The notes under the pieces: model-generated | What the model was told of the DNA's origin: nothing | The model's database searches: none | Seen by the model: the letters and a program-made list of their open reading frames with translations, nothing else | Translations under genes and position numbers: made by a program | Virus record (IMG/VR): IMGVR_UViG_3300021431_000008 | Source: a virus | Taxonomy: Duplodnaviria > Heunggongvirae > Uroviricota > Caudoviricetes | Strand: one strand, 5' to 3' | DNA length: 64,000 nucleotides | In this document: positions 3,793-53,366 of the stretch, in pieces | Layout of the letters: each line of letters opens with the position of its first letter | Numbering within the stretch: the first letter of the stretch is position 1

Positions 3793-4623
3793 TTAGAAGT
3801 CAGGCGGAAGAGCCATAAGCTTCTTCCAAGTTTTCGGACCCACGATGCCATCGGCTTTAAGCCCGTTAGCAGCCTGGAATTCTTTAACTTTGCGTTCCAG
3901 ACTTTCCGCAAATACACCGCAGATCAGCACGTTATAGCCGTGACACTTCAAAAGAGCTTGAAGCAAATATGCCTCTGTCCAATTGAGTCCATTCTGGATC
4001 GTTCTAGGAGGCCAGGTTTTTTCGATAGCAATCCCTTCGTCGTCTTCATCCTGAGGAACCGGAGTCGGCTCTGGTGTAGGAGTAGGCGTCGGTACTGGAT
4101 CGTCAGAAGGCGGAGCCCATCCATTAAACTTTGCATACCAGGAACGTGCGTAAGGAAGACGAGCGTTCAGAGCACCCTGCTTATCGGCAGGATTTTCCCA
4201 AATCCAAACAAGCTGATGCATAATTTCATCGATACTGTGACTGGACTTACAAAGGTTGTAAATGCCCGGAAAATCTTCTCGCATTTCGATGAAGATAAAT
4301 TCTTTCTGAGCGTCATGATCGGCAATACTTACGCCACGACTTTTAACATACTCGTAGAACTTTTTCTTTCTACTCCAAAAAGTCCACTGGATGTATCCAA
4401 AGCCGACTTCGTCGTAAATGAAATTCTTTCCGTTATAGGTAATAAGCCCTGCATCAGCGCGTCGAATATACTCTTCATCGCTGACTACACGATTGATGCG
4501 ATCCTCGGCATTGTCGCAACGGAAAGCGCTTTCGCCCTGAATGTTTGCAAGAAGCGAAACGGCGCCTTCGACTGTGAAGCCTTCTTGAATTGCTCTATAA
4601 TAAAGTATTTCTGGAACTGTCAT
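3793..4623 (-). CDS. endolysin / cell-wall hydrolase: lysozyme-like N-domain, PT-rich linker, C-terminal PG_binding_1 domain
   Basis: N-terminal NIQGESAF...GFGYIQW motif (shared with the 29761..30471 product), PVPTPTPTPEPTPVP linker, C-terminal ...FQAANGLKADGIVGPKTWKKL typical of peptidoglycan-binding domain 1. Confidence 0.75.
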   Translation of the reverse strand: MTVPEILYYRAIQEGFTVEGAVSLLANIQGESAFRCDNAEDRINRVVSDEEYIRRADAGLITYNGKNFIYDEVGFGYIQWTFWSRKKKFYEYVKSRGVSIADHDAQKEFIFIEMREDFPGIYNLCKSSHSIDEIMHQLVWIWENPADKQGALNARLPYARSWYAKFNGWAPPSDDPVPTPTPTPEPTPVPQDEDDEGIAIEKTWPPRTIQNGLNWTEAYLLQALLKCHGYNVLICGVFAESLERKVKEFQAANGLKADGIVGPKTWKKLMALPPDF

Positions 4624-11884: not shown

Positions 11885-12427
11885 TCAGAACGGCTCTTCC
11901 TCCGTACCGGGAGCCGTAACCGGCTGCTGATTCATATAACCATACTTCTCGGCGAAGTAATCGGGAACGACCTCGACCCAGATCTTCTGCGCATACAGCG
12001 GAATATACTTCGTGCCGTTGTTGTGAATCTTCTCCTTACCGAACTCAACCTCAAGGCACATGTTACGAATATCCACGCTGTTGATCACACGAATGTGGTC
12101 AGCGTCCAGAACGGTCGTATTACCGTTCGAGATCATGTAAGCGTCAACCGGCTTCAGGAAGTACGAAACCGTTACCGAAACATAAGGCATCGGAACGTCG
12201 TTCGGTCCCTGAACCTTGGTATACTTTACTTCACAACCGCGATCCTTCAGCTCCTCAGCGATCTCCTCCGTGATAAACAGCAGGAAATTCCGATAGCCGG
12301 GGCTGTTCACGGTACGGCCGGTAACCTTGTCCTTCTTCTCCTCGCCACCGAAGTTGCGGGAACGCACCTCACGGTCGACAATGCCATCGATAATGATGCT
12401 ACGAGACTTTCTTTCAGCGATCTGCAT
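11885..12427 (-). CDS. hypothetical protein (between helicase and replicase; possible DNA-binding role)
   Basis: 180-aa ORF in the replication module. Confidence 0.5.
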   Translation of the reverse strand: MQIAERKSRSIIIDGIVDREVRSRNFGGEEKKDKVTGRTVNSPGYRNFLLFITEEIAEELKDRGCEVKYTKVQGPNDVPMPYVSVTVSYFLKPVDAYMISNGNTTVLDADHIRVINSVDIRNMCLEVEFGKEKIHNNGTKYIPLYAQKIWVEVVPDYFAEKYGYMNQQPVTAPGTEEEPF

Positions 12428-12465: not shown

Positions 12466-15400
12466 TTATTGTGCAAAAGTCGCGAAATCACCATATTGAT
12501 TGATCGCGGCTATTGCGTCGTTCTTAAGTCCCTCGAAGTAACTCAGATCGATCGAGTCCTCAAGGTGACGTTCTTTGACGGTTTCGGCCTCAAGCCAGCG
12601 ATAATCCTTCGAACCAGCTGCATAACCGAACTTTCCGCCATTCTCCCGAACCAGACGACCTCCGCCATGTCCGGGCTTGATCGGGCAAAACAGACCTGCT
12701 TTCCCGACAAAGTGATAATCGTGACACTTTTTGATCTCTTCACGAATTTCGCACAAGCGAATATAATCCTTGTGAAATTCCTCCGAGACGTACTGATCGA
12801 GCTTTTTGTCTGAAATATCTGTCAGAACCGGATTGAAGCCGTCCGTCAGATTCTTATCATTCTCATCTGTAAGCTCAAACTGCACTTTATGCCACTTCTT
12901 GACAAGTTTGTCCTCTTCCTTCTCCAGAAGCTCCGACGAAGGCAGTTTCTCGTCCATATCCAAATATAAACCGAGACCGACCTTTACCGTCTGTGTCACG
13001 CACAGGTCATAAAAGCCAATCTCGTCATGGCTGAACAGAGTCTTGAATTCATAGGGAGAACTGTCTTCCTTGAACTGGTCGCCGGTTCCCTCCCATTTTC
13101 CTGCCGATTTGCCGTTCTCCGGATCGTTGGTGTACTTACAAATATAAACTGCGTTATTGACGAGACAGATCTTCTCGAACTTATGCTCGATTTCAAAGGT
13201 GTATCCGAACTTCTTGCCATAATCCATGACAAAGTTGTAGATCTTCTCGTCGGGGTTTGCGATCTTGATGGAATCAGTCTTCACATGAATGACCCGATAG
13301 CCCTGATCCTTGACTTTCAGCATCAGATCAATCATGAATAGTGCTCCGCGCTTTGCCACCCAGTTATCGTCGTTCCGAGGATCTCTTAGACGATTCGTAA
13401 AATGAGCCGCTGTAAGGCCGTAAACGCTATTGATTGCGATCTTCAGCGCTTTCGAGAGCTGTTTGGCATCTTCATCAGACGTCAGGTACGGAGCCAGAAT
13501 TCCGTTATAGAGCGAACGGACCCAGTCGTAGTCCTTATGCTTGATATGCAGACGAATATCCAGCAGCATCTTGAAGTTCTCAGTGTAAGGCCCAAAGCCA
13601 TTCTCAGCAATCAAAGACGAAGGATGGTGTGATGCCGAGTCGTAGCACTCGGAATATCCATACATACCCCAGTTAGCAAAGACAAAGCCGCCTTCGCCAG
13701 GGTCATAGCCCTTATACCAGCTCTTACCGGAGATCATCGTGCAACGATAGTAGGTCTTGCCTTCAACAGGAACCTCGTCTTTGGTCTTGTTGTACTTGCC
13801 GGAAATATCCAGCTCATAGAACTCGAACCTCTTCGGGTTACAGGTCGGCAGCATATCGTCTACGACGACCATATAGCGCTCCTTCGGGAAGCCATACGGT
13901 GAGAACTCATAACCCGGGAACAGTTTCGACAGATCAGGCTTAACAAACATCGCCTGCGGGTTTTTCTCGTTTCCAACGATCAGCTTCGTAGTAAGCGTAT
14001 TTGTCGAGTCATTGACGGTTGAACCGGGGCCTCTCAGCGCATTAGCCAACTCCACCAGAATTTCTCTGGCCCGGAAGTCCGACTGATTGGCATAGAACAC
14101 CTGCTCTGTCGCGATAACGTCGTTACAGCAATATTCCGCTACGCGTTTCCAGAGATTCTGCGGCACAGGCTTATCCCATGGCAGGCCTGCTTCATCGTGA
14201 CGAATATCCACGCCCTGCTTCTGTAACTGGATCTCCCACTTCTTAAGCCCCTTCTTATCGGAGCAGAAGTCGAAAATATCCGTGTAGCTGAGATTCTTCG
14301 ACTCATTGATCGTCCAATCATTACGGCCCTTTGGAGCGTTGATGATGTTCTGCGAACGAGTAAAGAGTTCAAAGATCGAATCGCCGCGAATTCTGGCATA
14401 GCAAATATGATTATCGTATCCGAGATTATTAAAACCGATCATGTTGTACGACTGGAACACACGCAGCACTTCATTCGGCTCCGGGTTAATCATCGTAATG
14501 CAATCCTGACCCATCGGTTTATAGACAAGAACGAACAGGTTCGGAAAGACCTCGGTATCGAAGAAGGCAATCTTCTTCTCTCCTTCTTTCGGCTCTACCC
14601 ATTCGGACTCTTCTTCGCTCTTATAAGGGAAACTCTCAGCCTTGTCCAAGCACTGAAGCGAATGATTGTGCGAAGCAGCGGCAAACGCCAGCACCTGAGG
14701 CTTCAGTTCACTCAGGTCATACTTCATCCCGCTCTCATAGGCCTCGTTCAAAACCTTCCCGATATAATCGACGCAACATACTGTCGAAAACGGGGAGATC
14801 TCCTTACGCAAAGCCTTTCTGACAGCAGCAAGCAAGTGCTTCTGATCTTCTATAGTGTACTCATTTACCGTTTTCGGATTCTCCTTTCTCAAAGGTAGAC
14901 CGGAACTAATCGTCGCAATGGGAATATCATTGCAGCGGGTCAGCTTCCTCCTCAAGCTGGCCTTTCCGGTATAGAACTTGATCTCGACGTCGTCTTCATA
15001 GATCGGCAGAACCTTCGAAATGTCACCGGTATAAATATAAGTCAGGTGAATCCCGGCTCCGCTCTTGCTTAGCTCTGCATAGGTAGGAGGCCACTTGGAT
15101 GCAGCCTTCATGTTGAGCTCCAATGACTTCTTTCCTGTCTTCGGATCCTTCTTGTCGAAGTCAACAAAACAGAACTGCTCAGGACATCTAAGATAGTGAA
15201 GCTCTGCCGTATTCAGATCCTTCAGAATCGTCTGGCAATCGTCCCACGGAACAGATGGCCGGTCGCTTCCGTCCTCCTTAATATAAGCATACTGAGCAGG
15301 CCAGTCTGAACCGATCTTATCCAGGATACTTTCTGTGGTGTTGAACTGGAGCCAACTGTCATTACTCTCTTTACTTTTCTTGTCTTTCTTCTCAGATCCG

Positions 15401-16695
15401 GCCGTTTCATCAAACTTTTCGATTCTTAAACCAGTATAAATATTTCTCTTGGGTTCGCCATGATAGTAACCACGCTCTTTGTAAACCAGAAAATAATTCT
15501 TAAGTTCTTCTTTTACGATTCTCTTGGAATAAGGATAAGGCACTTTTGCATCATCACAATACACACGATACTTAAACCAAATATCATCTAACAGTAACGA
15601 CTCCTCGCCTTTAAGCCATTCGTAATTTTCGAACATGAAGTTATAGAAATCGTTCGTCGCCGACATCATGCTAAGCGGAACATAATCGTCATAACAATGA
15701 GGATCTTCATTGTATACATCGAGACAATACGCTGCGATCGCCCCGAGCTCAAATCCTATGTTCTTCTTAAGCTGTATATAACGCCGATTCGGAATCTTGT
15801 TTCCGGTAGGTGAAATATCGATCAGTCGTCTAAGAAGACCGGACTTGGAATCCGTAATTTTCACAGGCGAATTCGTAGCAATGAAGAGCATCGTCTGAAT
15901 GCGCATCTCATACTTACTTTTAAACTTTTCGTTAATCGTCAAGGTTTCGTGCGAAACCAATGCGTTCAGTCGAGTGTTTGTTTCAATTCTACTCAACTGA
16001 CCATCCGGATCGATTGCTACGATCGGATTTGACTTAAACGATTCAAGAGCAAAGTCTGATGATCCGCTTCCCAAGGCTGCTGCTTCAAAATGTCCGCAAT
16101 AACCTTCAAACAAATTTTCTATAATTTCAAGTATTGTACCTTTACCGCATCCAGGGGCACCATAAAATACGAAGAACTTCTGAATCCAACGAGAATCACC
16201 ATTTACGATAGACCCTATAGCCCATTCAATCTTATGGCGTTCTTCAGGAGAATATAATGTTCCGACAAGCTCATTCCAATTGTCAATACTTCCATGTTCG
16301 AGGGCATACGGAACACACTTCGATGAATAATCTTCACGTTTCGGAACAGTATTCATAAACGTCAACGATTCATCGAGAGGGTGATAATTATCGCTTGTCT
16401 GTTTTGTTACATACTTTCGCCACTTATCGATGCTTCCGGAATCACTGTCCCACATATAAGCAACGTCAATATTATCGTAATCGCCTTTACGCTTTTCTTT
16501 ATACTCTTCAAGTTCCGCATCGATCAGGTCAATAACATCATCCCATTGCGTAGACCAGCGTTCATTACGTTCGTCCCAAATAGCATAAAAATCTCCGCCG
16601 CGAATCATAAGATCTTTACTTTGTTTTGTAATGAATTTCGGATAGACCAATGCCGGTTGTCCTGCTTTCTGCGGAATGCGCAAAGCTGGTTTCAT
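12466..16695 (-). CDS. fused replicase: D5N-like/SF3 helicase + AEP primase-like motifs + family-B DNA polymerase (3'-5' exonuclease and polymerase domains)
   Basis: P-loop FVFYGAPGCGKGT (aa ~177-187), Walker B IVAIDPDGQ, motif C FIATNSP. CFVDFDKKD and SGAGIHLTY (AEP DxD / SGxGxH). ExoI AFFDTEVFPNLF, ExoII GFNNLGYDN, ExoIII YCCNDVIATE. PolB motif B KIAINSVYG, motif C IHVKTDSI. Confidence 0.8.
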   Translation of the reverse strand: MKPALRIPQKAGQPALVYPKFITKQSKDLMIRGGDFYAIWDERNERWSTQWDDVIDLIDAELEEYKEKRKGDYDNIDVAYMWDSDSGSIDKWRKYVTKQTSDNYHPLDESLTFMNTVPKREDYSSKCVPYALEHGSIDNWNELVGTLYSPEERHKIEWAIGSIVNGDSRWIQKFFVFYGAPGCGKGTILEIIENLFEGYCGHFEAAALGSGSSDFALESFKSNPIVAIDPDGQLSRIETNTRLNALVSHETLTINEKFKSKYEMRIQTMLFIATNSPVKITDSKSGLLRRLIDISPTGNKIPNRRYIQLKKNIGFELGAIAAYCLDVYNEDPHCYDDYVPLSMMSATNDFYNFMFENYEWLKGEESLLLDDIWFKYRVYCDDAKVPYPYSKRIVKEELKNYFLVYKERGYYHGEPKRNIYTGLRIEKFDETAGSEKKDKKSKESNDSWLQFNTTESILDKIGSDWPAQYAYIKEDGSDRPSVPWDDCQTILKDLNTAELHYLRCPEQFCFVDFDKKDPKTGKKSLELNMKAASKWPPTYAELSKSGAGIHLTYIYTGDISKVLPIYEDDVEIKFYTGKASLRRKLTRCNDIPIATISSGLPLRKENPKTVNEYTIEDQKHLLAAVRKALRKEISPFSTVCCVDYIGKVLNEAYESGMKYDLSELKPQVLAFAAASHNHSLQCLDKAESFPYKSEEESEWVEPKEGEKKIAFFDTEVFPNLFVLVYKPMGQDCITMINPEPNEVLRVFQSYNMIGFNNLGYDNHICYARIRGDSIFELFTRSQNIINAPKGRNDWTINESKNLSYTDIFDFCSDKKGLKKWEIQLQKQGVDIRHDEAGLPWDKPVPQNLWKRVAEYCCNDVIATEQVFYANQSDFRAREILVELANALRGPGSTVNDSTNTLTTKLIVGNEKNPQAMFVKPDLSKLFPGYEFSPYGFPKERYMVVVDDMLPTCNPKRFEFYELDISGKYNKTKDEVPVEGKTYYRCTMISGKSWYKGYDPGEGGFVFANWGMYGYSECYDSASHHPSSLIAENGFGPYTENFKMLLDIRLHIKHKDYDWVRSLYNGILAPYLTSDEDAKQLSKALKIAINSVYGLTAAHFTNRLRDPRNDDNWVAKRGALFMIDLMLKVKDQGYRVIHVKTDSIKIANPDEKIYNFVMDYGKKFGYTFEIEHKFEKICLVNNAVYICKYTNDPENGKSAGKWEGTGDQFKEDSSPYEFKTLFSHDEIGFYDLCVTQTVKVGLGLYLDMDEKLPSSELLEKEEDKLVKKWHKVQFELTDENDKNLTDGFNPVLTDISDKKLDQYVSEEFHKDYIRLCEIREEIKKCHDYHFVGKAGLFCPIKPGHGGGRLVRENGGKFGYAAGSKDYRWLEAETVKERHLEDSIDLSYFEGLKNDAIAAINQYGDFATFAQ

Positions 16696-34100: not shown

Positions 34101-34177
34101 TGGTGGACCGTCTGGGACTTGAACCCAGGACCTGAGGTTTATGAGACCACTGCTCTGACCGACTGAGCTAACGGTCC
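34101..34177 (-). tRNA. tRNA-Met (CAT)
   Basis: minus strand GGACCGTTAGCTCAGTCGGTCAGAGCAGTGGTCTCATAAACCTCAGGTCCTGGGTTCAAGTCCCAGACGGTCCACCA; acceptor, D-arm and T-arm pair; anticodon loop CTCATAA; encoded CCA. Confidence 0.8.
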
Positions 34178-34437
34178 ATTTCCATTAGTGGGTGACAAAG
34201 TGCATTGATATAAGCTGTATGCGCTTCTTTTTCGAGCTCTTTGGCTTCCTCCCATTTTTGTTTGTAGATAGATACTTCATAGGCTTGTTCGTATCCCTCG
34301 TTTTCAAGGCATTCTAAGTAACCTTCTAATGCATACCAGCTAATAATATCGTAATCAATCTTTTTGCCATCCCTGAATTTACAGACACATACATTGTCGG
34401 AGTAAGCCTCTTCGATAGTGTATTGTAATTTACTCAT
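34168..34437 (-). CDS. hypothetical protein
   Basis: 89-aa ORF. Confidence 0.45.
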   Translation of the reverse strand: MSKLQYTIEEAYSDNVCVCKFRDGKKIDYDIISWYALEGYLECLENEGYEQAYEVSIYKQKWEEAKELEKEAHTAYINALCHPLMEMDR

Positions 34438-34467
34438 TTTGTTGTCTCCTTTCTAAATCTACGAAAA

Positions 34468-34543
34468 TGGCTGAGACGGCAGGATTTGAACCTGCGAATA
34501 ACGGAGTCAAAGTCCGCTGTGTTACCCACTTCACCACGCCTCA
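34468..34543 (-). tRNA. tRNA-Gln (TTG)
   Basis: minus strand TGAGGCGTGGTGAAGTGGGTAACACAGCGGACTTTGACTCCGTTATTCGCAGGTTCAAATCCTGCCGTCTCAGCCA; anticodon loop CTTTGAC. Confidence 0.75.
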
Positions 34544-34562
34544 AAATATAAGAAAAAAGCAG

Positions 34563-34594
34563 AAGAACTGCAATGAGTCCTTCTGCAATGGAAG
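34563..34594 (-). terminator. rho-independent terminator (GCAGAAG/CTTCTGC stem + T6 on minus)
   Basis: aaaaaagcagaagaactgcaatgagtccttctgc downstream of the 34595..34897 CDS. Confidence 0.6.
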
Positions 34595-34897
34595 TCAGAC
34601 CAAACCGAATCTAAAGTGATCTTTACTCTTTAAGAAATCGTAGAACATAATGTGTTCGGTAGTTTGCTTGTAGTTTGCAAGCTTCGTCAGATCCTTGTAC
34701 TCTCGCCCGACTTCGTAAGAGCCGTCGACCACAATCACTTCCGTAGTATTCAACTGCCGCAGCATTCGATTTGCTGTCTCGCGAATATTCTGGATAGTGA
34801 TCCAGTCGCCTCTCAGATGCCAGGGATTTCCCTGAAGCTGATGAAGCTTATCAAAACCATAGAAATATACCCGATTTTCTTTATTATTTTCATACAT
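34595..34897 (-). CDS. hypothetical protein
   Basis: 100 aa; promoter-like box at 34956..34977 upstream. Confidence 0.5.
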   Translation of the reverse strand: MYENNKENRVYFYGFDKLHQLQGNPWHLRGDWITIQNIRETANRMLRQLNTTEVIVVDGSYEVGREYKDLTKLANYKQTTEHIMFYDFLKSKDHFRFGLV

Positions 34898-34955
34898 TTT
34901 CTTTTCCTCCTATAAAAATTAGTTAGTTTTTTATGTCTGTCTCCTCATAATAGGA

Positions 34956-34977
34956 ATTGTAAAATATACGAAAAAAG
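34956..34977 (-). promoter_or_regulatory. copy of repeated promoter-like box + hairpin
   Basis: attgtaaaatatacgaaaaaag followed by the agagcgaggt...acctcgctct hairpin. Confidence 0.5.
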
Positions 34978-35122
34978 AGCGAGGTAGAGCCTCTCTGGAC
35001 TCTTTGACCTCGCTCTTAAACGACCAGAAAACCTTGAAAAGCTGGTCCATAGCTTCATCCTCGCCTTAATAGCCCCGATCCTTCGCTATGTTTTTCGGCT
35101 TCTTCATTAGAAGCTCCGGTCC

Positions 35123-35207
35123 TGGTACCGCTGAAGGGACTTGAACCCTCATGACTCTCGTCGGCAGATTTTAAGTCTGCTGTGTCTACCTATTCCACCA
35201 CAGCGGC
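35123..35207 (-). tRNA. tRNA-Leu (TAA), type II with long variable arm
   Basis: minus strand GCCGCTGTGGTGGAATAGGTAGACACAGCAGACTTAAAATCTGCCGACGAGAGTCATGAGGGTTCAAGTCCCTTCAGCGGTACCA. Confidence 0.75.
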
Positions 35208-40926: not shown

Positions 40927-41214
40927 TCACACCTCCAATACTGCGTAATTCGTCGTTCCTGCTTTTCTAAATGCCGGTAAATATCCTTTGGTATAGGCAT
41001 AGTAACGTTCGAGAATCAGGGCGTAATTCGTAAAAGCGGGACCGTAAATGTTTCGTCCGAGTTCAATTCCGGAGACGACCGTTTTCGTTACTCCCATGAT
41101 ATCGGCGACTTCTCTTTGACTTAAGCCAAGAAGTTCTCTCATTTCACGAAGACGTTCCGGTGTCCAGCTCGATTGAAACAAGATCTTACGTGTTGTTTCA
41201 TCAATCTTGTTCAT
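40927..41214 (-). CDS. XRE-family HTH transcriptional regulator
   Basis: LRELLGLSQREVADIMGVTKTVVSGIELGR. Confidence 0.6.
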   Translation of the reverse strand: MNKIDETTRKILFQSSWTPERLREMRELLGLSQREVADIMGVTKTVVSGIELGRNIYGPAFTNYALILERYYAYTKGYLPAFRKAGTTNYAVLEV

Positions 41215-46418: not shown

Positions 46419-46515
46419 AATTAATTAGATAAGGTCTCAAACCTCTCATTTATAACGTTGCAGGTTTTACGAAAAAAGCTAAGACACTGTAATATCAGCG
46501 CTTAGCTTTAGCTGC

Positions 46516-46764
46516 TTACGTTTCAGCAGGATTCGTTGACTTTATGGTAATGTATTTGGATACTAATGTTGCACTTCGGCATGCAGCTTTATATGTAATC
46601 ACACCGACCATGAACTTGGCGAACGATGGCATGTTTGACTTCATGCACAAGACGCCAACTACGATCTCAGTGATCATTCGAGCCGTATGACCATAAACTT
46701 GACTTGCATCCCAAGTTGCTTTTTCCATTTCCATAAATTTAACCTCCAAATATAATGTAAGCAT
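46516..46764 (-). CDS. hypothetical protein
   Basis: 82 aa, flanked by the cassette motif. Confidence 0.4.
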   Translation of the reverse strand: MLTLYLEVKFMEMEKATWDASQVYGHTARMITEIVVGVLCMKSNMPSFAKFMVGVITYKAACRSATLVSKYITIKSTNPAET

Positions 46765-46819
46765 ATAGCTTCATTTATGAAGCTGTAATTTTTACGAAAA
46801 AAAGAGAGCCGCTGTTAAG

Positions 46820-47182
46820 CTAGCTCTCCTCTCCTAAGTAATATAAATAACCTGGATCGATGTCTATTACGTAAGAAGCGCGAGTTTCTTTCATATATTC
46901 TTCGAAGCGTATACATAAATCAAACACTAGTCCTTTATCATTACTGGCAAAAAACACAAGATCATGACTTATAGGTGTTTCTTCGTATCCTAGTTTATGC
47001 TCATTGTCCAAATGCTCATCAATGATGCTAAAAACATGCCATACGTCAAGCAAACCAATGCGGTCAAGCTCGGTGTTTAATGCGTTAACAATTCGAACTA
47101 ATGTTTCAAATTTTGCTATGATATATGCGTCAAAAAATTGAAAATAACATACGACTTCATTTTCGTAATCCATTAGTTTCAC
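46820..47182 (-). CDS. hypothetical protein
   Basis: 120 aa, flanked by the cassette motif. Confidence 0.5.
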   Translation of the reverse strand: MKLMDYENEVVCYFQFFDAYIIAKFETLVRIVNALNTELDRIGLLDVWHVFSIIDEHLDNEHKLGYEETPISHDLVFFASNDKGLVFDLCIRFEEYMKETRASYVIDIDPGYLYYLGEES

Positions 47183-47234
47183 CTCCTATCTTTGGAGCTG
47201 TAGAAAATACGAAAAAAGAAGAGCCGCTGTTAAG

Positions 47235-47498
47235 CTAACTCTTCTTGTAGAAGTTTTCTAATAGATTATTTATAGTTTTTTCTGTGCTGTATAGCGCACC
47301 TATTTCAGGTTTCACCACCATGGTATAACCAACGGTATTGTACAGTTCTACATTTTTAGGGTCTTGCCCGTATTCGGTAAGGCCCTGAAGCAATTCGACA
47401 TACGCGTCACCTACCGCAACGTGAAACTTTGAAATGATTCCTGCTAATTCTTTACTACGTTTCATGTTATCTACAAATAATTCATTCATAGTTTTCAC
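47235..47498 (-). CDS. hypothetical protein
   Basis: 87-aa ORF. Confidence 0.45.
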   Translation of the reverse strand: MKTMNELFVDNMKRSKELAGIISKFHVAVGDAYVELLQGLTEYGQDPKNVELYNTVGYTMVVKPEIGALYSTEKTINNLLENFYKKS

Positions 47499-47553
47499 CT
47501 CCTCTATTTATGAAATTGTAGAATCTACGAAAAAAGTAAAGCCACTGCGGGCC

Positions 47554-47847
47554 TTACTTTTTAGTGTTTACCATTTCTGTCGCTATAAGATCGATCTTGA
47601 ACAGCTTATGAATATCAAGACTATCAATCATGATAGGTAATGTTCCTCCACTGTCTTTGAATAGAATCACTTCGAAATATCCTCCGGAATATGGATCGCA
47701 GTCATAAACCGCGTAAGCTTTTCCTTTGAATATTCTGGCGATTCTTTCCGCTTTATGAGCAGTTGCCAACATATACTTACCAGTGAAATAACCTTTATAC
47801 AAAAATAGCTCTTGATCGCTTTTTGCTCTCCAAATTTGCATAAACAT
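47554..47847 (-). CDS. hypothetical protein
   Basis: 97-aa ORF. Confidence 0.45.
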   Translation of the reverse strand: MFMQIWRAKSDQELFLYKGYFTGKYMLATAHKAERIARIFKGKAYAVYDCDPYSGGYFEVILFKDSGGTLPIMIDSLDIHKLFKIDLIATEMVNTKK

Positions 47848-47900
47848 CGCTCCTTTCTATCTAATAGGTTGCAGGTTTTACGAAAAAAAATAAAAAGTTG

Positions 47901-47973
47901 TGAGAGTTACCCCGCTTCGAACAGGGGTCTCCGAAATATAAATTCCGGCGCTCTACCATTGAGCTATTATGGA
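47901..47973 (-). other. tRNA-like element / degenerate tRNA (intact D- and T-arms, non-pairing acceptor stem, 8-nt anticodon loop)
   Basis: minus strand TCCATAATAGCTCAATGGTAGAGCGCCGGAATTTATATTTCGGAGACCCCTGTTCGAAGCGGGGTAACTCTCA. D-stem GCTC/GAGC, T-arm CCCTG-TTCGAAG-CGGGG, but the 5' TCCATAA cannot pair with the 3' TAACTCT. Confidence 0.35.
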
Positions 47974-48070
47974 TCGTTGGGGCCCTTTCATCCCCGGGCT
48001 CGCATAACCGTCCCATTCGCCTTCCTCTCACTATAGGAGGTGTAGAATTTGCGAAAAAGGAAAGCCGGTG

Positions 48071-48271
48071 TCAGCTTTCCAATACCGGCTCTTCCTCGAT
48101 TATATAATATTCTTCAGGTATATATTCAGGATAATCATCTAATTCGTCGGCTAAGATTCCATTATGTTCCTTTACATAGTTTAAAGCCCCTTGCTCAGAC
48201 TTAAATACTCCAGCAAGTTCCTCGTGACCATTTGCAAGCAGGATCTCGCGCCATAAAATGTATACCTTCAT
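48071..48271 (-). CDS. hypothetical small acidic protein
   Basis: 66-aa ORF. Confidence 0.45.
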   Translation of the reverse strand: MKVYILWREILLANGHEELAGVFKSEQGALNYVKEHNGILADELDDYPEYIPEEYYIIEEEPVLES

Positions 48272-48296
48272 ATTAATATCACCTCCTATTATAAAG

Positions 48297-48318
48297 CCTG
48301 TAAAATTTGCGAAAAAAG
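48297..48318 (-). promoter_or_regulatory. archetypal copy of the promoter-like box
   Basis: minus strand hairpin GAGAGAGC..GCTCTCT, TTTTTT, CGCAAATTTTACAGGCTT, TATAAT, AGGAGGTGA, 7 nt, ATG. Confidence 0.55.
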
Positions 48319-48328
48319 AGAGCCGTTG

Positions 48329-48613
48329 TTAGCTCTCTCTGTCCATATCTTCGAATAATGCACGATACTCTTTCTTTATCGCATTGATTGATTTGTTTAT
48401 TGCATTAACATCTCTAAGTGCCTCGATTCGTAACTGAGTAGGATCGACGTTATTCAGAACAACTTTACCATTTTCAACATGGCAAACTTCTGGATTTTCC
48501 GCCTTCCAAATAGTTTCAAAAATGAGTTGATCACGCTTTTGATCTAATGCTTTCATAACACTATCTCTTACTTCCGCTTTGTAAAGTTCGTATTGCATCG
48601 ACATTATAGTCAC
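48329..48613 (-). CDS. hypothetical protein
   Basis: 94-aa ORF. Confidence 0.45.
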   Translation of the reverse strand: MTIMSMQYELYKAEVRDSVMKALDQKRDQLIFETIWKAENPEVCHVENGKVVLNNVDPTQLRIEALRDVNAINKSINAIKKEYRALFEDMDRES

Positions 48614-48657
48614 CTCCTATCATAAAGCCTGTAGAATTTGCGAAAAAAGAGCCGCTG

Positions 48658-48933
48658 TTAAGCTAGCTCTTTTTCTAGTATTCCGTAACTTCCAATAAAA
48701 GTTAAAAGTCGATTAGAATCCATACTACTTTCTTGCGTAATGCGTTCGATCCATAGATCTTCAAATATTGGTCCTTCACAGCGCTTTGCATTTGGCCACG
48801 TTTTTTCTATGTATTCTTCAGCATCCAATTTGCTTTTAAATACACTAAAAATCTGCGACATTACTAAATTGCCGTCATCAATTCCAGTATTTTTTTCTCC
48901 ATAGAAGTCTCCATATACCACATATACTTTCAT
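48658..48933 (-). CDS. hypothetical protein
   Basis: 91-aa ORF. Confidence 0.45.
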   Translation of the reverse strand: MKVYVVYGDFYGEKNTGIDDGNLVMSQIFSVFKSKLDAEEYIEKTWPNAKRCEGPIFEDLWIERITQESSMDSNRLLTFIGSYGILEKELA

Positions 48934-48963
48934 ACGGTTTTCATCTCCTTTCCTATTTTATGA

Positions 48964-48986
48964 ATTGTAGAATTTGCGAAAAAAGA
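48964..48986 (-). promoter_or_regulatory. copy of the promoter-like box + hairpin
   Basis: ttgtagaatttgcgaaaaaagagagccgttgtagctctctc. Confidence 0.5.
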
Positions 48987-49003
48987 GAGCCGTTGTAGCT
49001 CTC

Positions 49004-49384
49004 TCACATGTGAATCCAAGGTTGCGCATCCAAAACATCCACCTGGGTTTCATAAATAGAATATACCGGAAGAACCTTTAGCCACGTGTCGCCATATTCA
49101 TCAGCTTTAAACGCATACCACGAAAGAGTATCCCGTTCGAGCCAATAGCTGAACATTTCGCTATCGAAAATATCAACCTTCTCATCTCGTTTGGGCATCA
49201 ATCCGTGAATATGGTTCATCAGCTCAATACTGAAAGCGATCTTGCCTGATTCTGTTTCCATCTTTTCCTGATTTATTTTATCTCTATAAGACGCCATGTC
49301 GCATCCCTCCTCATTTATGAAGCTGCAAAATATACGAAAAAGTAAAGCCGTTGTCGACTCTACTTTTACTGACTTACATATCAA
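49004..49384 (-). CDS. hypothetical protein
   Basis: 126-aa ORF. Confidence 0.5.
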   Translation of the reverse strand: MICKSVKVESTTALLFRIFCSFINEEGCDMASYRDKINQEKMETESGKIAFSIELMNHIHGLMPKRDEKVDIFDSEMFSYWLERDTLSWYAFKADEYGDTWLKVLPVYSIYETQVDVLDAQPWIHM

Positions 49385-49691
49385 AGTGATAAAATTTCGC
49401 GATATATTCCATCGTATTCAGCGGCTCTTCCATATCATCTGTCATCGCGTCGTACTGTTCAAACCAGTAGCCGGCTCGTGATATCCAGGCGCTCCACCGG
49501 AGTCTAAAGAACTTGAGCAACGTCGGCTTATTCACCGATTTATTGATCAGGTTAAAGTAGAACTTTTCGATGAGGCGCGACAAATACCAGAGTTTATACA
49601 AGGCCCAGTACTTTGGCGTGATTTTTACAAGCTTAAACCAAGCCCGCAGATACTCTTTTGCATCTTCTCTATCCACTAGTTTTACCTCCAA
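49374..49691 (-). CDS. hypothetical protein
   Basis: 105-aa ORF; promoter box 49723..49741 upstream, back-to-back with the integrase start. Confidence 0.45.
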   Translation of the reverse strand: MEVKLVDREDAKEYLRAWFKLVKITPKYWALYKLWYLSRLIEKFYFNLINKSVNKPTLLKFFRLRWSAWISRAGYWFEQYDAMTDDMEEPLNTMEYIAKFYHFDM

Positions 49692-49776
49692 ATATAATGT
49701 AAGCTTATAGCTCCATTTATGAAGTTGTAATTCTTACGAAAGCATGTTATACTTCCATTTTGAAGGAGGAATGCCG

Positions 49777-50823
49777 ATGAAATTACCCAGGGCAAAGAAA
49801 CTACCATCTGGAAATTGGCGGATTCAAATCGCAGTTGACGGCAAACGGTACAGTATTACCGATCCCGATCCGAAAGTCGTCAAGCAAAAAGCAAAGGAAC
49901 TTTATGCAGGCCTTCAGTTCGAAAAGCGCATACCTCTCACCGTCGGCAAAGCTTTCGATCAATATATCGAGGCAAAAGACAGCGTTCTCTCTCCTGCTAC
50001 CATTCGAGGTTATAAAAAAATCCGAAAAAACTATCTTCAGTTCCTCATGAAAGAAAATATCACGGATCTCACGCAGGAGCAGGTGCAGAAAGCCATCAAT
50101 GCCGACTTTAAACGTGGCGCAAGCAGCAAATCAGTAAGGAATGCTCACGGGCTTCTCAGTGCAGTCTTAAAAGAATATCGTCCAAACTTCGTCCTGAGAA
50201 CAACACTTCCTCAGAAAGAGCCTCATGAAATCTCTATCCTTACCGAAGATGAGCTCAAGAAACTCTATGCGGCAGCCGAAGGAACCAAGTATTACCTTCC
50301 TATTGTTTTGGCATCCTGGCTCGGTCTTCGTATGAGTGAAATTCGTGGACTTAAGTTTTCGGATATCATCGACGAACGGATTCACATTCAGCGAGCCATT
50401 GTCGAAGGAGAAGATGGACCTGCTGAAAAACTTACGAAGTCCTTAGCTGGTGACCGCTGGATTAAATGCCCGAATGAGATTAAGACCCTTATTGATCAGC
50501 AGCCACGCGATTCCGAATACGTAGTTCCTCTCACTCAGGCTGCGATCTACAAGGGCTTTATCCGTCTCTGTGAAAAGGCAAATATAACACAATGCCGCTT
50601 TCACGATCTCAGGCATTTCGCAGCATCTGAAGCCCACTCTCTTGGTGTTCCTGATAAATATGCTATGAAGCGTATGGGACACAAAACCGATAATATGCTG
50701 AAGACGGTTTATCAGCACACGATGATCGAAAAAGAGGATTCGTTCTCAGATTTAATCGACTCTCACATGGAGTCGCTCTTTTTAGGCGCTAAAACTGCAC
50801 ACGAAACTGCACACGCCGAGTAA
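49777..50823 (+). CDS. int: tyrosine site-specific recombinase / phage integrase
   Basis: C-terminal catalytic box CRFHDLRHFAASEAHSLGV...MGHKTDNMLKTVYQHT (R..HxxR..Y); start set at MKLPRAKK, 7 nt after GGAGG. Confidence 0.85.
   Translation: MKLPRAKKLPSGNWRIQIAVDGKRYSITDPDPKVVKQKAKELYAGLQFEKRIPLTVGKAFDQYIEAKDSVLSPATIRGYKKIRKNYLQFLMKENITDLTQEQVQKAINADFKRGASSKSVRNAHGLLSAVLKEYRPNFVLRTTLPQKEPHEISILTEDELKKLYAAAEGTKYYLPIVLASWLGLRMSEIRGLKFSDIIDERIHIQRAIVEGEDGPAEKLTKSLAGDRWIKCPNEIKTLIDQQPRDSEYVVPLTQAAIYKGFIRLCEKANITQCRFHDLRHFAASEAHSLGVPDKYAMKRMGHKTDNMLKTVYQHTMIEKEDSFSDLIDSHMESLFLGAKTAHETAHAE
50790..50816 (+). repeat. tandem arm-type repeat AAACTGCACACG x2 (candidate integrase arm sites, P arm)
   Basis: aaactgcacacgaaactgcacacg overlapping the last codons of int. 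Confidence 0.45.
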
Positions 50824-50863
50824 ACTTTCCTGATTTCATGCGTATTTGAAGGCCTTTTCTATA

Positions 50864-50890
50864 GGGGTTCAACTCCCCCCATCTCCACCA
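50864..50890 (+). mobile_element. attP-like core: 3' fragment of a tRNA gene (T-arm + acceptor + CCA) immediately downstream of int
   Basis: ggggttcaactccccccatctccacca = T-stem GGGG, loop TTCAACT, CCCC, acceptor 3' strand CATCTCC, A, CCA; no matching 5' half nearby. Confidence 0.6.
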
Positions 50891-50896
50891 ATTTCC

Positions 50897-50929
50897 AAAG
50901 CCCTGAGCCACAACGGTTCGGGGCTTTTT
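50897..50929 (+). terminator. rho-independent terminator of int
   Basis: aaagccc...gggcttttt (AAGCCC/GGGCTT stem + T5). Confidence 0.5.
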
Positions 50930-50987
50930 CTTTGATTTCAAGCGGTTTGCAGTCACTTAAGTATGCGAAATATCTTTCATGTCGGAA

Positions 50988-51036
50988 ACCGAAATTGCAC
51001 ACAAAACAGCTAAAACTGCACACGAAATTGCACATG
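50988..51036 (+). repeat. arm-type repeats (GAAATTGCACAC, AAAACTGCACACG, AAATTGCACATG; P' arm candidate)
   Basis: three more copies of A(C/T)TGCACA(C/T)G within 50 bp on the far side of the tRNA-fragment core. Confidence 0.45.
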
Positions 51037-51082
51037 AAAAAAATGAAAGTAGCTGTAAGAACTACTTCCATTTTGATTAATT

Positions 51083-51277
51083 TCAGACCTTCTTGAAGGG
51101 ACCCACGAACTGGAGTCCAATGTAGCAAGCCAGGAACGCCAGAATAACTTTGTGGCTCGCAATCCAGTCAAGGATGTTCAGGTTTCCAGACACGATGTCT
51201 GAACCGAAATTCACCAGACCGTACGCGACACACAGCGCCAGTGGCACCATCAGCATTGCATAAATAACTCTTTTCAT
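51083..51277 (-). CDS. small two-TM membrane protein
   Basis: 64 aa; VIYAMLMVPLALCVAYGLV and ILAFLACYIGLQFV. Confidence 0.45.
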   Translation of the reverse strand: MKRVIYAMLMVPLALCVAYGLVNFGSDIVSGNLNILDWIASHKVILAFLACYIGLQFVGPFKKV

Positions 51278-51542
51278 ATTAAATCCTCCTTTTATAATTA
51301 GGTCTTTCTATTATAAAAGGTGCGATTTTTACGAAAAAAGAGGGGGCTGTGTTGTTATTTCAGCCCCAAGGATCGTCACTTATTTACCATCATGAGCACG
51401 AGGCCCAGCACTACAACACCTATTGGTCCAAATTGTGTGAATGCCAGGATAGCTCCTGCACCTATGAGTAGTAATTTCATGGATCCTTCGTTATTCATCA
51501 ACATTCCTCCTCTTTTTATTATTGCATTACTGCATTATAGAG

Positions 51543-51565
51543 TCTGCATATTTTACGAAAAAAGG
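51543..51565 (-). promoter_or_regulatory. copy of the promoter-like box + GGAAAGCC..CTTTCC hairpin
   Basis: tctgcatattttacgaaaaaaggaaagccgttgtagactttcc; on minus TATAAT lies 18 nt after CGTAAAAT. Confidence 0.5.
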
Positions 51566-51594
51566 AAAGCCGTTGTAGACTTTCCTTTTGAGAC

Positions 51595-51960
51595 TTACTT
51601 TCTTCGCCTCTCTTTCCGCAAAAGCCCCATATCGTTAAGAGCTTCTCCTTTGGACTCGCCGTCGATCATGCGACTACCGAGTTCCAAGATTTCATTGTTT
51701 GTCAAAGGATGCTTCAACATGAACTCTTCGCCAGTCACGTCATCCTCGGATAAACAACGATCATTCTGATTGGCTCCAGCCAGCATGCTAAGGCCCTTAA
51801 AGGCCAAGCTGCCGACCATGGATACCATCGGAAGTACCATTGCCGGATTCTTGGATACGAACTCAGCGAACGAATTCAGTCCCGAAGTTACCTTCGCTTT
51901 CGTCCTCTGAAACCAGCTTCCTTCAGCTTTCGTTGTTTCGACCGTTTTGTTTTCGTCCAT
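51595..51960 (-). CDS. hypothetical protein
   Basis: 121 aa; hydrophobic core AMVLPMVSMVGSLAF. Confidence 0.45.
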   Translation of the reverse strand: MDENKTVETTKAEGSWFQRTKAKVTSGLNSFAEFVSKNPAMVLPMVSMVGSLAFKGLSMLAGANQNDRCLSEDDVTGEEFMLKHPLTNNEILELGSRMIDGESKGEALNDMGLLRKERRRK

Positions 51961-52063
51961 AAGTTTTTCCTCCTTTTAAATTTAAACTTCTGCATTATAG
52001 AACCTGTAAAAAATGCGATAAAAATAGGAACCGCTGCAAGCGCAACAGCCCTATTTTAGTAAA

Positions 52064-52315
52064 TTAGCCTTTCATTTTTCTGATACTACGATAGATACTT
52101 TCCGTTCCGATCGCCAGTGACATAAACACGATGATTCCAGCAACAACCGTATGCCAGGGAACGCTATAAAATGCATGCGTATACTCGAGATAAGTTACGC
52201 CTTCGAACTTCATATCGAAGATCGTAGCTATCCCAAGCTCCGTAAGACACATTACTGCGTCCATGATCATCAGGATCGCCAGAATTCCAAGTCTCATCCA
52301 TGCCGATTTCTTCAT
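52064..52315 (-). CDS. small membrane protein
   Basis: 83 aa, three hydrophobic helices. Confidence 0.45.
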   Translation of the reverse strand: MKKSAWMRLGILAILMIMDAVMCLTELGIATIFDMKFEGVTYLEYTHAFYSVPWHTVVAGIIVFMSLAIGTESIYRSIRKMKG

Positions 52316-52646
52316 AACTTTAAGCTCCTTATAATATAGTATTCAGAAAGACTTACTTTCCTATCTTATAAGCTGCCAAAATTACGAAAAAAGGAAAGCC
52401 GTTGTAGGCTTTCCTTCCATGGCATAGATTACTTAAGATTGGATCGTTTTGTATAATACTTATCAACAGCCCACTTAACTACCGTTCTAATAATCGTAGC
52501 AAGTCCTACAAACTCTAAAACAGTTTCCGTGCTGTCCTTCATATTTTTCATAACTTTCCTCCTATTATGTAATATTCTGCATTATAGGGCATGCAAAAAA
52601 TACGAAAAAAAGGAAAGCCGTTGTAGACTTTCCTTTAGAACTTATC

Positions 52647-52844
52647 TTACTTAACAGGAAACATCTTAGTTAATTTGTGCATCGATATCCCGAGAATAGC
52701 GGAAACTTCTGATGGCGAATAACCCTCGCTAAGCAATTCGCATGCTTTTCTTTTGCGCTTCATTGCATAATACGCTTCGATAATACCTCCAGTCACAGCT
52801 CCGCATACAACAAAAGCCGTCGAATACACAAAAAATTTCTTCAT
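52647..52844 (-). CDS. small membrane protein
   Basis: 65 aa; FFVYSTAFVVCGAVTGGII. Confidence 0.4.
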   Translation of the reverse strand: MKKFFVYSTAFVVCGAVTGGIIEAYYAMKRKRKACELLSEGYSPSEVSAILGISMHKLTKMFPVK

Positions 52845-52891
52845 ATTATATATCCTCCAAATATAATGTAAGCTTACGCTCCACTATAAAA

Positions 52892-52913
52892 GCTGTAACA
52901 TTTACGAAAAAAG
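52892..52913 (-). promoter_or_regulatory. copy of the promoter-like box + hairpin
   Basis: agctgtaacatttacgaaaaaaggaaagccgttgtagactttcc. Confidence 0.5.
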
Positions 52914-52974
52914 GAAAGCCGTTGTAGACTTTCCTTATAGATTTAGATACCTACGTAATTCTATTCTTTAGTTT

Positions 52975-53331
52975 TTAATGAATATCGAGATCTCTTTCTA
53001 AACGCTCACATTCTTTAGATATTTCATCATATTTAATACGTACTATTCGTTGAATTTCATCTTCGCTTAAGAAATCTTTCAATGTCAACACTCGCATATG
53101 ATTAAGGTTTTCTTTATCACGAATAATAAACTCATAATCGTTTGCAAATGCTACTTTCAAAATATCTTCAAACGAAAACGAATTTCGCTGAAGTTTCGTA
53201 TTAAAATAGTGCGAAGAGCAACCTAAATATGGCGCTATAGTTGCTGGTGTTCTTTCTCGTTGTTCATTAAACCATTTTACTAAAAATGATTTTTTTCGAT
53301 TAATCCAAGTATCTTTTTTCATATGTTTCAC
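52975..53331 (-). CDS. hypothetical protein
   Basis: 118-aa ORF. Confidence 0.45.
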   Translation of the reverse strand: MKHMKKDTWINRKKSFLVKWFNEQRERTPATIAPYLGCSSHYFNTKLQRNSFSFEDILKVAFANDYEFIIRDKENLNHMRVLTLKDFLSEDEIQRIVRIKYDEISKECERLERDLDIH

Positions 53332-53344
53332 CTCCTATTTTACA

Positions 53345-53366
53345 AGTTGCCAAAATTACGAAAAAA
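53345..53366 (-). promoter_or_regulatory. copy of the promoter-like box + hairpin
   Basis: agttgccaaaattacgaaaaaaggaaagccgttgtagactttcc. Confidence 0.5.

Follow-up and report, generated by a model that had tools for sequence, protein, structure and literature searches.

Insertion at the 3' end of ssrA, the tmRNA gene, by lambda-type integrases has been known for more than two decades. In lambda itself, the arm sites are divided between P1 and P2 on one arm and P'1-P'3 on the other, and lambda-type systems employ IHF and Xis as accessory bending and directionality factors. Several ssrA-directed elements have been described: the att of the Bifidobacterium prophages Bb447phi1 and Bb1192phi1 is 26 bp long and located at the 3' end of tmRNA (PMC6109161), the Shewanella CP4So lies at the ssrA 3' end with a 26-nt match (PMC5148205), and in E. 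coli and Salmonella ssrA is presented as a hotspot of integration (PMC3603311, with Williams 2002 and 2003 as cited there). Among t(m)RNA-gene sites, a T-loop sublocation class has been distinguished (Williams 2002, as summarised in bioRxiv 10.1101/2020.11.02.365908), and stem halves around a 7-nt loop are the geometry put forward in the same summary for core sites and the overlap region.

The locus examined here lies at 49.7-51.1 kb of a 64,000-nucleotide window (the whole stretch of DNA that was analysed), which comes from an uncultured tailed phage of ~96 kb, whose 95,927-bp contig has a further ~32 kb outside the window. The combination of a core matching an ssrA end, a lambda-like Int and flanking arm repeats points to a lambda-type attP aimed at ssrA, and the segment is in all likelihood an integration module composed of this attP and a lambda-type tyrosine integrase gene. 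The basis of this assignment is observed: identity to ssrA, the family and fold of the integrase, and a conserved architecture of core, arms and terminator whose parts co-vary. The 11 kb around the att site gave no megablast match to deposited phages, and the nearest deposited integrase is 46% identical to that of the window. Among the phage's own genes are those for a DNA polymerase-primase and a YonO-like RNA polymerase. Around int, every gene called in the source contig is on the - strand except int and one 78-aa gene, and the five longest other + ORFs each overlap a - strand ORF, with PHROG matches for 0 of 5 versus 3 of 5 of their - partners; both observations are consistent with int being the only long plus-strand gene, as the sequence-only reading had it. 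The sole clear Pfam match among the ORFs neighbouring int is an HTH_3 protein (40927-41214), ~9 kb away.

The int gene (49777-50823, + strand; alternative ATG at 49744) encodes 348 residues and was identified by Pfam, PDB matches and AF2/Foldseek. Its match to PF00589 (56.8 bits, E=3.2e-15) exceeds the curated cut-off of 27.1, which bears out the tyrosine recombinase first proposed from the letters. Lambda Int gives the best PDB sequence matches, in which R185, H276, R279 and H302 stand opposite R212, H308, R311 and H333; together with K218 or K221 and Y312, these are the proposed catalytic residues, and all of them, including both lysines, are invariant across 53 homologues. The AF2 model has a pLDDT of 87 and, when the whole Int including its N-terminal domain was used as the Foldseek query, the top matches were full-length lambda Int over 339-345 aligned columns. 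Residues 7-43 are modelled as strands 7-8, 14-20 and 23-29 followed by helix 32-43 (pLDDT ~85-89), and no arm-binding family was matched in this N-terminus by Pfam even at E<=1. On these sequence and model data, the integrase looks functional. A consensus scan picked up a sigma-70-like promoter candidate on the + strand at 49725-49753 (TTGTAA-17-TATACT with TG before the second hexamer, 9 of 12 matches), 24 nt upstream of the int ATG, and GGAGG is present at 49765-49769. Chance alone would supply equally many such sites in this region, which makes the promoter candidate weak by itself.

The attP core GGGGTTCAACTCCCCCCATCTCCACCA, a 27-bp ssrA 3'-end copy recognised by genome matches, ARAGORN and Rfam, occupies 50864-50890 on the + strand and begins exactly 40 nt past the last base of the int stop codon. 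It is composed of the 5' side of a T stem (50864-50867), the T loop TTCAACT (50868-50874), the 3' side of the T stem (50875-50879), an acceptor 3' strand (50880-50886), a discriminator A (50887) and CCA (50888-50890), and it lacks a 5' half, including any 5' acceptor strand pairing with CATCTCC. ARAGORN called no tRNA or tmRNA gene at the core, where Rfam gave a 15-nt local tmRNA match (model positions 348-362) of 12.5 bits, below the gathering threshold of 47, and a permuted-tmRNA match of 11.6 bits (E=4.2). These results and the coordinates agree with the isolated 27-nt fragment, 40 nt after the int stop, that had been described previously, and they rule out an intact tRNA or tmRNA gene missed at that stage. 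An inserted element flanked by core repeats was also ruled out, the core being single-copy in the 64-kb window even at 3 mismatches.

Genomes were scanned with a 22-nt sub-pattern of the core, the remaining bases being read from the flanks of the matches. More than 120 genome stretches matched, and tmRNA-type ...ACGGG precedes the match in 115 of the 120 listed. Of the first 60 loci, the ones scanned with ARAGORN, 34 have a tmRNA whose end coincides with the match and none has a tRNA gene call there; Rfam confirmed a tmRNA in 6 of 6 tmRNA-type loci missed by ARAGORN. Judged by sequence identity, the attP core reproduces the final 27 nt of ssrA genes of bacteria and not the tRNA 3' fragment that the sequence-only reading had seen in it. 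That reading had held that its proposal would fail if no host tRNA gene ended in this sequence; to the letter, no such gene was found among the loci scanned, because the core is a tmRNA end and not a tRNA end, but the proposed integration mechanism survives. Many core matches lie in Oscillospiraceae/Clostridiales, which makes the suggested Bacillota host plausible but not specific, since ssrA genes of several other phyla also end in this 27-mer.

The repeat AAAYTGCACAYR has five matches around the core, all on the + strand (at 50792, 50804, 50992, 51013 and 51025), versus 0.08 expected by chance. The P arm carries two tandem arm-type sites AAACTGCACACG (50792-50803 and 50804-50815), located by motif scan and by their conserved offsets in relatives, and the motif scan places three P'-arm sites on the same strand, namely AAATTGCACACA (50992-51003), a further AAACTGCACACG (51013-51024) and AAATTGCACATG (51025-51036). 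Five copies of A(C/T)TGCACA(C/T)G had been reported to flank the core; five repeats are indeed there, but this narrow pattern fits four of them and the fifth ends in A. The left copies, which had been said to overlap the int stop, instead fill the last int codons (peptide KTAHETAH) and end 5 nt before the TAA. The three right repeats, announced ~100 bp past the core, are found 102-146 nt beyond it.

A similar organization is observed in seven related att regions whose Int proteins are 59-95% identical: the sites lie at -72, -60, +128, +149 and +161 from the core (within 1 nt), the +128 site of L143 being an inverted or degenerate copy, and the DNA between the arm sites diverges. The arm motif changes in concert across all copies, as TGCACAC, TGCACC or TTCACAC, so that P co-varies with P'. 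Int N-domains and arm sites also occur as co-varying pairs, KKL with TGCACAC versus VKR with TGCACC, in addition to TTCACAC. As far as sequence comparison goes, the arm sites are real. In more distant relatives, the core and the repeats flip orientation together relative to int. The core adjoins int likewise in most of 80 IMG/VR relatives, and the left edge of the block common to relatives falls at the same T-stem position. The core itself evidently switches between lineages: that of L143 is GGGGTTCGACTCCCCTCATCTCCACCA, and the cores of other relatives correspond to a 3' end with an acceptor strand matching host tRNA-Gly genes seen in L198. The clade carrying the ssrA-directed module consists of gut phages of ~83-99 kb that themselves code for a DNA polymerase-primase and a YonO-like RNA polymerase. 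Collectively, the core, arm offsets and terminator, conserved among Int proteins as little as 59% identical, together with the concerted arm changes and the core switching, argue for continuing selection on function.

An intrinsic terminator, with a 13-bp stem, a 5-nt loop and a T run, is located on the + strand at 50897-50937, 7 nt past the CCA. It is conserved in six lineages, and in 7 of its 13 base pairs both partners have changed without loss of pairing; compensatory changes evidently maintain this terminator after the core. An intrinsic terminator on the - strand at 51040-51074 stops the rightward operon of the phage immediately short of the P' arm, and a similar hairpin with an A-run is also present in L133 and L139. 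With terminators on both sides, the att region is predicted to be insulated from transcription both ways.

As a lambda-type attP, the locus could function in the following manner. The protein-DNA contacts would be of two kinds: the core-binding and catalytic domains of Int would bind the inverted T-stem halves GGGG/CCCC, and the N-terminal domain, with AAAYTGCACACG as its predicted arm-site target, would bind the five AAAYTGCACAYR sites, two left and three right, to form a lambda-like intasome. The crossover would be positioned within the core, strand exchange proceeding across the 7-bp T loop TTCAACT. Integration in the host, by recombination with ssrA, would place the phage copy of the 3' end and the phage terminator behind the host tmRNA body, leaving the tmRNA intact (attL); the displaced host 3' end would then adjoin int (attR). 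The attL junction would then read ...TTTCGGACG followed by GGGGTTCAACTCCCCCCATCTCCACCA and ATTTCCAAAGCCC, and the attR junction ...CTTTTCTATA followed by the core and the host terminator. The terminator at 50897-50937 ends int transcription and, after integration, would become that of the rebuilt ssrA gene.

The attL/attR junctions that the sequence-only reading had proposed to look for in metagenome data were searched as exact patterns in JGI metagenomes and IMG/VR, and none was found for the window phage or its close relatives. An attL 42-mer spanning tmRNA body, core and phage P' flank had 0 matches in the JGI metagenomes. A pattern of core, gap and P' arm doublet also had 0 matches there and retrieved from IMG/VR the free-form L133 alone, as did two further core and P' patterns in IMG/VR. 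All 40 contigs carrying the window integrase or one of five 67-91% homologues have phage genes after the att site (attP form), the three looked up at 59% identity are short metagenome contigs, two of them with free-form att regions, and no contig longer than 100 kb carries an integrase homologue among the top 120. Relatives of 41% Int identity are integrated beside host tRNA clusters (L198, L189). Three viral contigs (L121, L124 and L127) with a 31%-identical integrase have the same core; since their downstream similarity to host DNA lasts only ~103 nt, they are ambiguous as true attR junctions. Comparison with relatives gives good support to the earlier view of the site as the attP of a non-integrated phage, with a gene-3'-end core and lambda-like P/P' arms.

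These data bear on the alternative that survives best, which we nevertheless consider unlikely: the module would be a relic or rarely used, int and attP being inherited baggage of an effectively virulent phage without stable lysogeny. No integrated copy was found and every contig examined is in attP form, no excisionase or classical (CI-type) repressor was recognised among nine neighbouring ORFs (Pfam, E<=1), and enzymes for replication and transcription are encoded by the phage itself, a DNA polymerase-primase and an RNA polymerase of this kind being perhaps more usual in virulent phages. However, the lack of integrated contigs is weak evidence, because metagenome assemblers usually break at att sites. 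Moreover, the invariance of the catalytic residues in the 53 homologues, and the selection suggested by the conserved core, arm offsets and terminator, the concerted arm changes and the core switching, speak against a relic. Taken jointly, two further propositions are also rather doubtful. The first is that the ~83-99-kb clade, never seen integrated, practises rare or conditional integration, or replaces the 3' end and terminator of the host ssrA with phage-controlled versions; the second, a separate one, is that the pairs of Int N-domain and arm site represent orthogonal recombination specificities.

It is very improbable that the tRNA-like fragment acts as RNA and not as a DNA recombination site, for instance by giving the int mRNA a tRNA-like 3' end or by mimicking tmRNA or tRNA. 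Being part of the int 3' UTR and upstream of the terminator, the fragment would be transcribed, and the T hairpin of the core is present in the MFE fold. Nevertheless, the region folds only marginally better than shuffles (z = -2.0) and its fold is dominated by the terminator, the acceptor strand CATCTCC has no 5' partner, and no Rfam family is matched; an RNA function would also leave unexplained the five positioned, co-varying DNA repeats and the fact that relatives have the unit as a whole inverted with respect to int. Hardly more credible is another DNA transaction of Int and its site, such as multimer resolution or segment inversion, in place of chromosomal integration. Tyrosine recombinases also do such jobs and no integrated form was seen, but the single-copy core leaves no partner site for inversion within the window, and multimer resolution would have no use for a core that exactly matches the end of a host gene and, in relatives, is exchanged for other host t(m)RNA ends. 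Finally, integration into a tRNA gene whose 3' end would be the core has next to no chance of being correct: the fragment does possess a canonical T arm, 7-nt acceptor strand, discriminator and CCA, and same-family relatives carry tRNA-type cores with a tRNA-Gly-like acceptor strand, but the upstream ...ACGGG and the ARAGORN and Rfam calls at the genome matches indicate tmRNA, and CATCTCC plus the discriminator A carries U70 of G3:U70, the alanine identity pair present in tmRNA.

The preferred reading, a lambda-type integrase with an attP aimed at ssrA, is that of a well-known kind of phage integration module and involves no new mechanism. As the module suggests, this ~96-kb uncultured phage lineage is probably temperate, no lysogen having been seen. 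Its host is narrowed to bacteria with an ssrA ending in the 27-mer, gut Oscillospiraceae and other Clostridia being the most frequent among the matches listed. Furthermore, arm sites and cores in the related lineages change in step with the integrase, which makes them useful for studying or engineering integrase specificity.

Compared with lambda, the integrase shows its best PDB match in both sequence and structure, over the full length and with a predicted three-domain layout, though identity is ~20% and no Pfam arm-binding domain is matched. Both attP sites have five arm-type sites split two and three; here, however, all five are direct repeats with the left pair inside the int coding sequence, the core copies the end of an RNA gene whereas that of lambda is an intergenic site, and no Xis or IHF sites were identified. 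With the ssrA prophages and islands, that is, Bb447phi1/Bb1192phi1, CP4So, the E. coli and Salmonella elements and the Cluster K mycobacteriophages, the module has two features in common: the integrase is of the tyrosine type, and a block of identity at att, ~26-27 bp long, spans the T arm and the acceptor 3' strand of tmRNA. Those elements are integrated with attL and attR, whereas attP alone is present here, in a much larger phage of ~96 kb that supplies a DNA polymerase and a YonO-like RNA polymerase of its own. As in the T-loop sublocation class, in the form in which that preprint summarises it, the block extends from the T stem-loop to the CCA end and has symmetric stem halves around a 7-nt loop, and the start of the identity block places the core tentatively in this class.

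The 27-nt core, GGGGTTCAACTCCCCCCATCTCCACCA (50864-50890, + strand), starts 40 nt after the stop codon of the integrase gene (int) and is single in the window, even at three mismatches. It comprises four of the five bases of a T-stem 5' side (GGGG), a T loop (TTCAACT), the T-stem 3' side (CCCCC), an acceptor 3' strand (CATCTCC), a discriminator A and then CCA. As stated in the sequence-only reading, a 5' half is absent here: ARAGORN calls three tRNA genes in the window, at 34.1-35.2 kb only, and at the core Rfam aligns just 15 nt, locally and below threshold, with the T arm of its tmRNA model. The same reading regarded the fragment as a tRNA end, and this identity had to be abandoned. A 22-nt sub-pattern of the core, searched against GTDB with one genome per species, matched at least 120 stretches. 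Among the matches listed, ...ACGGG, often as ...TTTCGGACGGG, precedes the sub-pattern in 115 of 120, and for 34 of the first 60 loci ARAGORN calls a complete tmRNA gene whose end coincides with the match; in six of six tmRNA-type Clostridia loci inspected among those without such a call, the Rfam tmRNA model spans the match with 140-163 bits. Because of this context and these tmRNA genes, the core is, on sequence grounds, the final 27 nt of ssrA and not a tRNA end. Phage and ssrA are identical starting at the second T-stem G and up to and including the CCA, with TATA upstream in the phage versus GGAC plus G in ssrA. The T at acceptor position 70 of the core corresponds to U70 in the G3:U70 pair that confers alanine identity. 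This pair is well established as common to tmRNA and tRNA-Ala (PMC5148205).

The core had been expected to match the 3' end of a tRNA gene in Bacillota; the gene 3' ends matched encode tmRNA, and other phyla carry them too. Among the matches listed, core-bearing ssrA genes occur in many Oscillospiraceae and Clostridiales MAGs, some of them from human gut, and further carriers belong to Patescibacteria, Gammaproteobacteria, Treponema and Victivallis. Given this span, the core alone cannot name the host.

The proposed tyrosine integrase was confirmed. The int ORF (49777-50823, + strand, 348 aa) is preceded at 7 nt by GGAGG, with another possible ATG at 49744, and its product (Int) scores 56.8 bits with Pfam PF00589 (Phage_integrase), for which the cut-off is 27.1. 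Among PDB sequences, lambda Int is the top phmmer match, with R185, H276, R279 and H302 aligned to lambda R212, H308, R311 and H333; 53 homologues show no variation at R185, K218, K221, H276, R279, H302 or Y312. In the AlphaFold2 model (mean pLDDT 87), residues 7-43 form three short strands and a helix, followed by a linker and then by the core-binding and catalytic domains, and the best Foldseek matches of this model are full-length lambda Int entries (339-345 aligned columns). The modelled N-terminus is thus a likely candidate arm-binding domain, graded no higher since Pfam recognises no arm-binding family in it. The closest deposited integrase, 46% identical, is found in an unannotated human-faecal phage contig.

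The proposed arm repeats are best described as AAAYTGCACAYR, which occurs in five copies, all on the + strand, in 64 kb, versus 0.08 expected; the narrower pattern A(C/T)TGCACA(C/T)G, put forward from sequence alone, fits four of the five. The left pair (P arm; starts 50792 and 50804) was thought to overlap the int stop. It does lie inside the last int codons, but ends 5 nt short of the stop codon. The right triplet (P' arm; starts 50992, 51013 and 51025), placed earlier about 100 bp beyond the core, lies at 102-146 nt. A 13-bp terminator hairpin followed by a T run (50897-50927, + strand) begins 7 nt after the CCA, and a - strand terminator (51074-51040) lies on the other side of the att region. 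The C-terminal tail of Int is the translation of the P-arm repeats (50792-50823), so the peptide varies with the DNA motif: KTAHETAH with TGCACAC (window), KTAPEIAP with TGCACC (relatives L139 and L147) and SHETSH with TTCACAC (L146). Residues 345-348, at the extreme C-terminus, have pLDDT below 50.

Seven relatives were compared, with Int proteins 95% (L133), 91% (L150), 88% (L147), 86% (L139), 83% (L142), 67% (L143) and 59% (L146) identical to that of the window. In all seven, the five repeats are found at -72, -60, +128, +149 and +161 from the core start, within 1 nt, and these offsets held while the intervening DNA diverged; the exception is L143, where the +128 position is an inverted or degenerate copy. 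Repeat variants shift together across all copies of a lineage, being TGCACAC in the window, L133, L142 and L143, TGCACC in L139 and L147, TTCACAC in L146 and mixed (T/C)GCACAC in L150. The two TGCACC lineages have common changes in the Int N-terminus (KKL to VKR and SIT to SVT), and since L139 and L147 are closely related to each other, the tie of these changes to this repeat type is no more than suggestive. The core reads GGGGTTCGACTCCCCTCATCTCCACCA in L143 and ...GGGTTCGACTCCCATCATCCGCTCCA in L146, L164 and several other relatives; the acceptor strand of the latter form agrees with that of host tRNA-Gly genes in the more distant contig L198. The left edge of the shared block is kept at a constant T-stem position, and the hairpin 3' of the core is retained in six lineages, with 7 of 13 pairs preserved via changes on both sides. 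Among 80 IMG/VR relatives (36-95% identity), most have a t(m)RNA 3' fragment 35-430 nt 3' of int, accompanied by NNCACACG-type repeats, and in some lineages core and repeats are jointly inverted versus int. For instance, L155, L166-L169 and L223 (Int 49-59% identical) carry the whole att unit inverted, with a tmRNA-type core and four CGTGTGCA-type repeats, showing that core and arms move as one block. Collectively, this comparative evidence supports a working attP. The site is an attP by kind, as first proposed, albeit for a tmRNA gene, and we consider it probable that the module is an attP directed at ssrA.

Two contigs with 41% identical integrases, L198 (3969-4579) and L189 (3990-4424), converge with complete host tRNA genes, Gly(CCC)-Cys-Gly-Phe and Ser(GGA)-Leu, respectively; these adjoining tRNA clusters identify them, at the sequence level, as integrated prophage ends. 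L145 (5547-5840), a free-form contig of a 59% relative, carries an inverted tRNA fragment, probably from tRNA-Gly(CCC), and four copies of CGTGTGAAATT. In L164, a 58% relative, ARAGORN calls a "tRNA-Stop (anticodon TTA)" immediately 3' of the int stop (4053-4125, + strand), with a clean anticodon-like hairpin (AATGG-CTTTAAG-CCATT) upstream of the core and one extra CCA. The call may reflect a suppressor-like tRNA or an artefact of the att core. Furthermore, another element uses this ssrA site, as seen in a Clostridia MAG (L102, 3130-4400), where an attR-like junction has non-tmRNA DNA followed by an identical core. The next 1256 nt are 92% identical to the DNA 3' of ssrA in L030, and a 1009-aa ORF upstream of the junction has no Pfam match. 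A distant integrase lineage, 31-34% identical (L121, L124, L127, L128, L131 and L134 from IMG/VR; L064 from an Oscillospiraceae MAG), has the same int-then-core layout and an identical tmRNA core sub-pattern. This suggests that, in gut Clostridia, this ssrA end is a shared target of several groups of phages.

Several negative results count against active lysogeny. The host-phage junctions attL and attR, a proposed check of integration, did not appear. Neither an attL-specific nor a core-plus-arm exact pattern matched in JGI metagenomes, and three exact-pattern scans of IMG/VR returned only L133, a 96,439-bp contig of a close relative with an att layout equal to that of the window. Phage genes lie beyond the att site in all 40 inspected contigs, which carry either the window integrase or one 67-91% identical to it, including a 95,927-bp ENA metagenome contig that has the integrase sequence, with phage genes on either side of att; no contig exceeds 100 kb among the best 120 integrase homologues. 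Assembled contigs are prone to break at att sites. Since these breaks, the use of exact patterns, the coverage of JGI and IMG/VR, and a genome scan judged from the 120 matches listed limit the negative searches, chromosomal integration is still predicted as probable. No excisionase or CI-type repressor was recognised near int; the sole clear DNA-binding regulator met in this search is a 95-aa HTH_3 (XRE-type) protein (40927-41214, - strand), about 9 kb away.

At the DNA level, 11 kb of the phage around the att site have no match to deposited phages. It encodes, on the - strand, a 1409-aa DNA polymerase-primase fusion (12466-16695) and a 1040-aa PHROG 4291 protein (6566-9688), labelled "RNA-dependent RNA polymerase" and interpreted as a YonO-like RNA polymerase; the window also encodes a helicase, a single-strand annealing protein and an endolysin, and the list of this gene set further includes 10614-11864, 11885-12427 and 3793-4623 (- strand). 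Alongside an integrase, this is an unusual phage gene set. Three phage tRNA genes, Met(CAT), Gln(TTG) and Leu(TAA), lie at 34101-35207 (- strand). An intergenic unit, TTTTTCGTAWW (extended form TTCGTANNNNTTNCAACNTCATAA; e.g., 51328-51338, 49331-49341 and 49717-49740), is present at 46450-53365 in 15 copies, 13 on the - strand, versus 0.47 expected, and also in L133. The copies inspected lie directly 3' of a terminator-like hairpin and precede the start of a small - strand gene by a few tens of nt. Because the phage has a YonO-like RNA polymerase, the unit may be a phage-specific promoter.

A mechanism can be modelled on lambda Int and on the sublocation rules that Williams 2002 gave for integration sites in t(m)RNA genes, as summarised in bioRxiv 10.1101/2020.11.02.365908 and PMC3603311. 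The GGGG/CCCC T-stem halves would act as inverted core-type sites and the 7-bp T loop as overlap region, while a bivalent integrase would bridge the five arm sites to the core. The resulting attL would consist of the ssrA body, the core and phage P' DNA, so that the rebuilt tmRNA gene would stay intact and be ended by the phage terminator, and attR would consist of int, the core and the original host terminator. The terminators at 50897-50927 (+) and 51074-51040 (-) could shield the att region from transcription on both sides.

The lambda arm sites are P1, P2 and P'1-P'3, and this two-plus-three split is matched by the att region of the window. Tyrosine-integrase insertion of prophages and islands at the ssrA 3' end is long established (PMC6109161, PMC5148205, PMC3603311). 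In Bifidobacterium prophages, for example, a 26-bp att lies at the tmRNA 3' end, and Cluster K mycobacteriophages are a further case (both PMC6109161), as is Shewanella CP4So (PMC5148205). For E. coli and Salmonella, ssrA ranks as a major integration hotspot (PMC3603311). Particular to the present system are its carrier, a large uncultured phage clade that encodes polymerases of its own, the location of the P-arm sites within the last codons of int, and the co-variation of arms and core, which is unusually clear across the lineage series.
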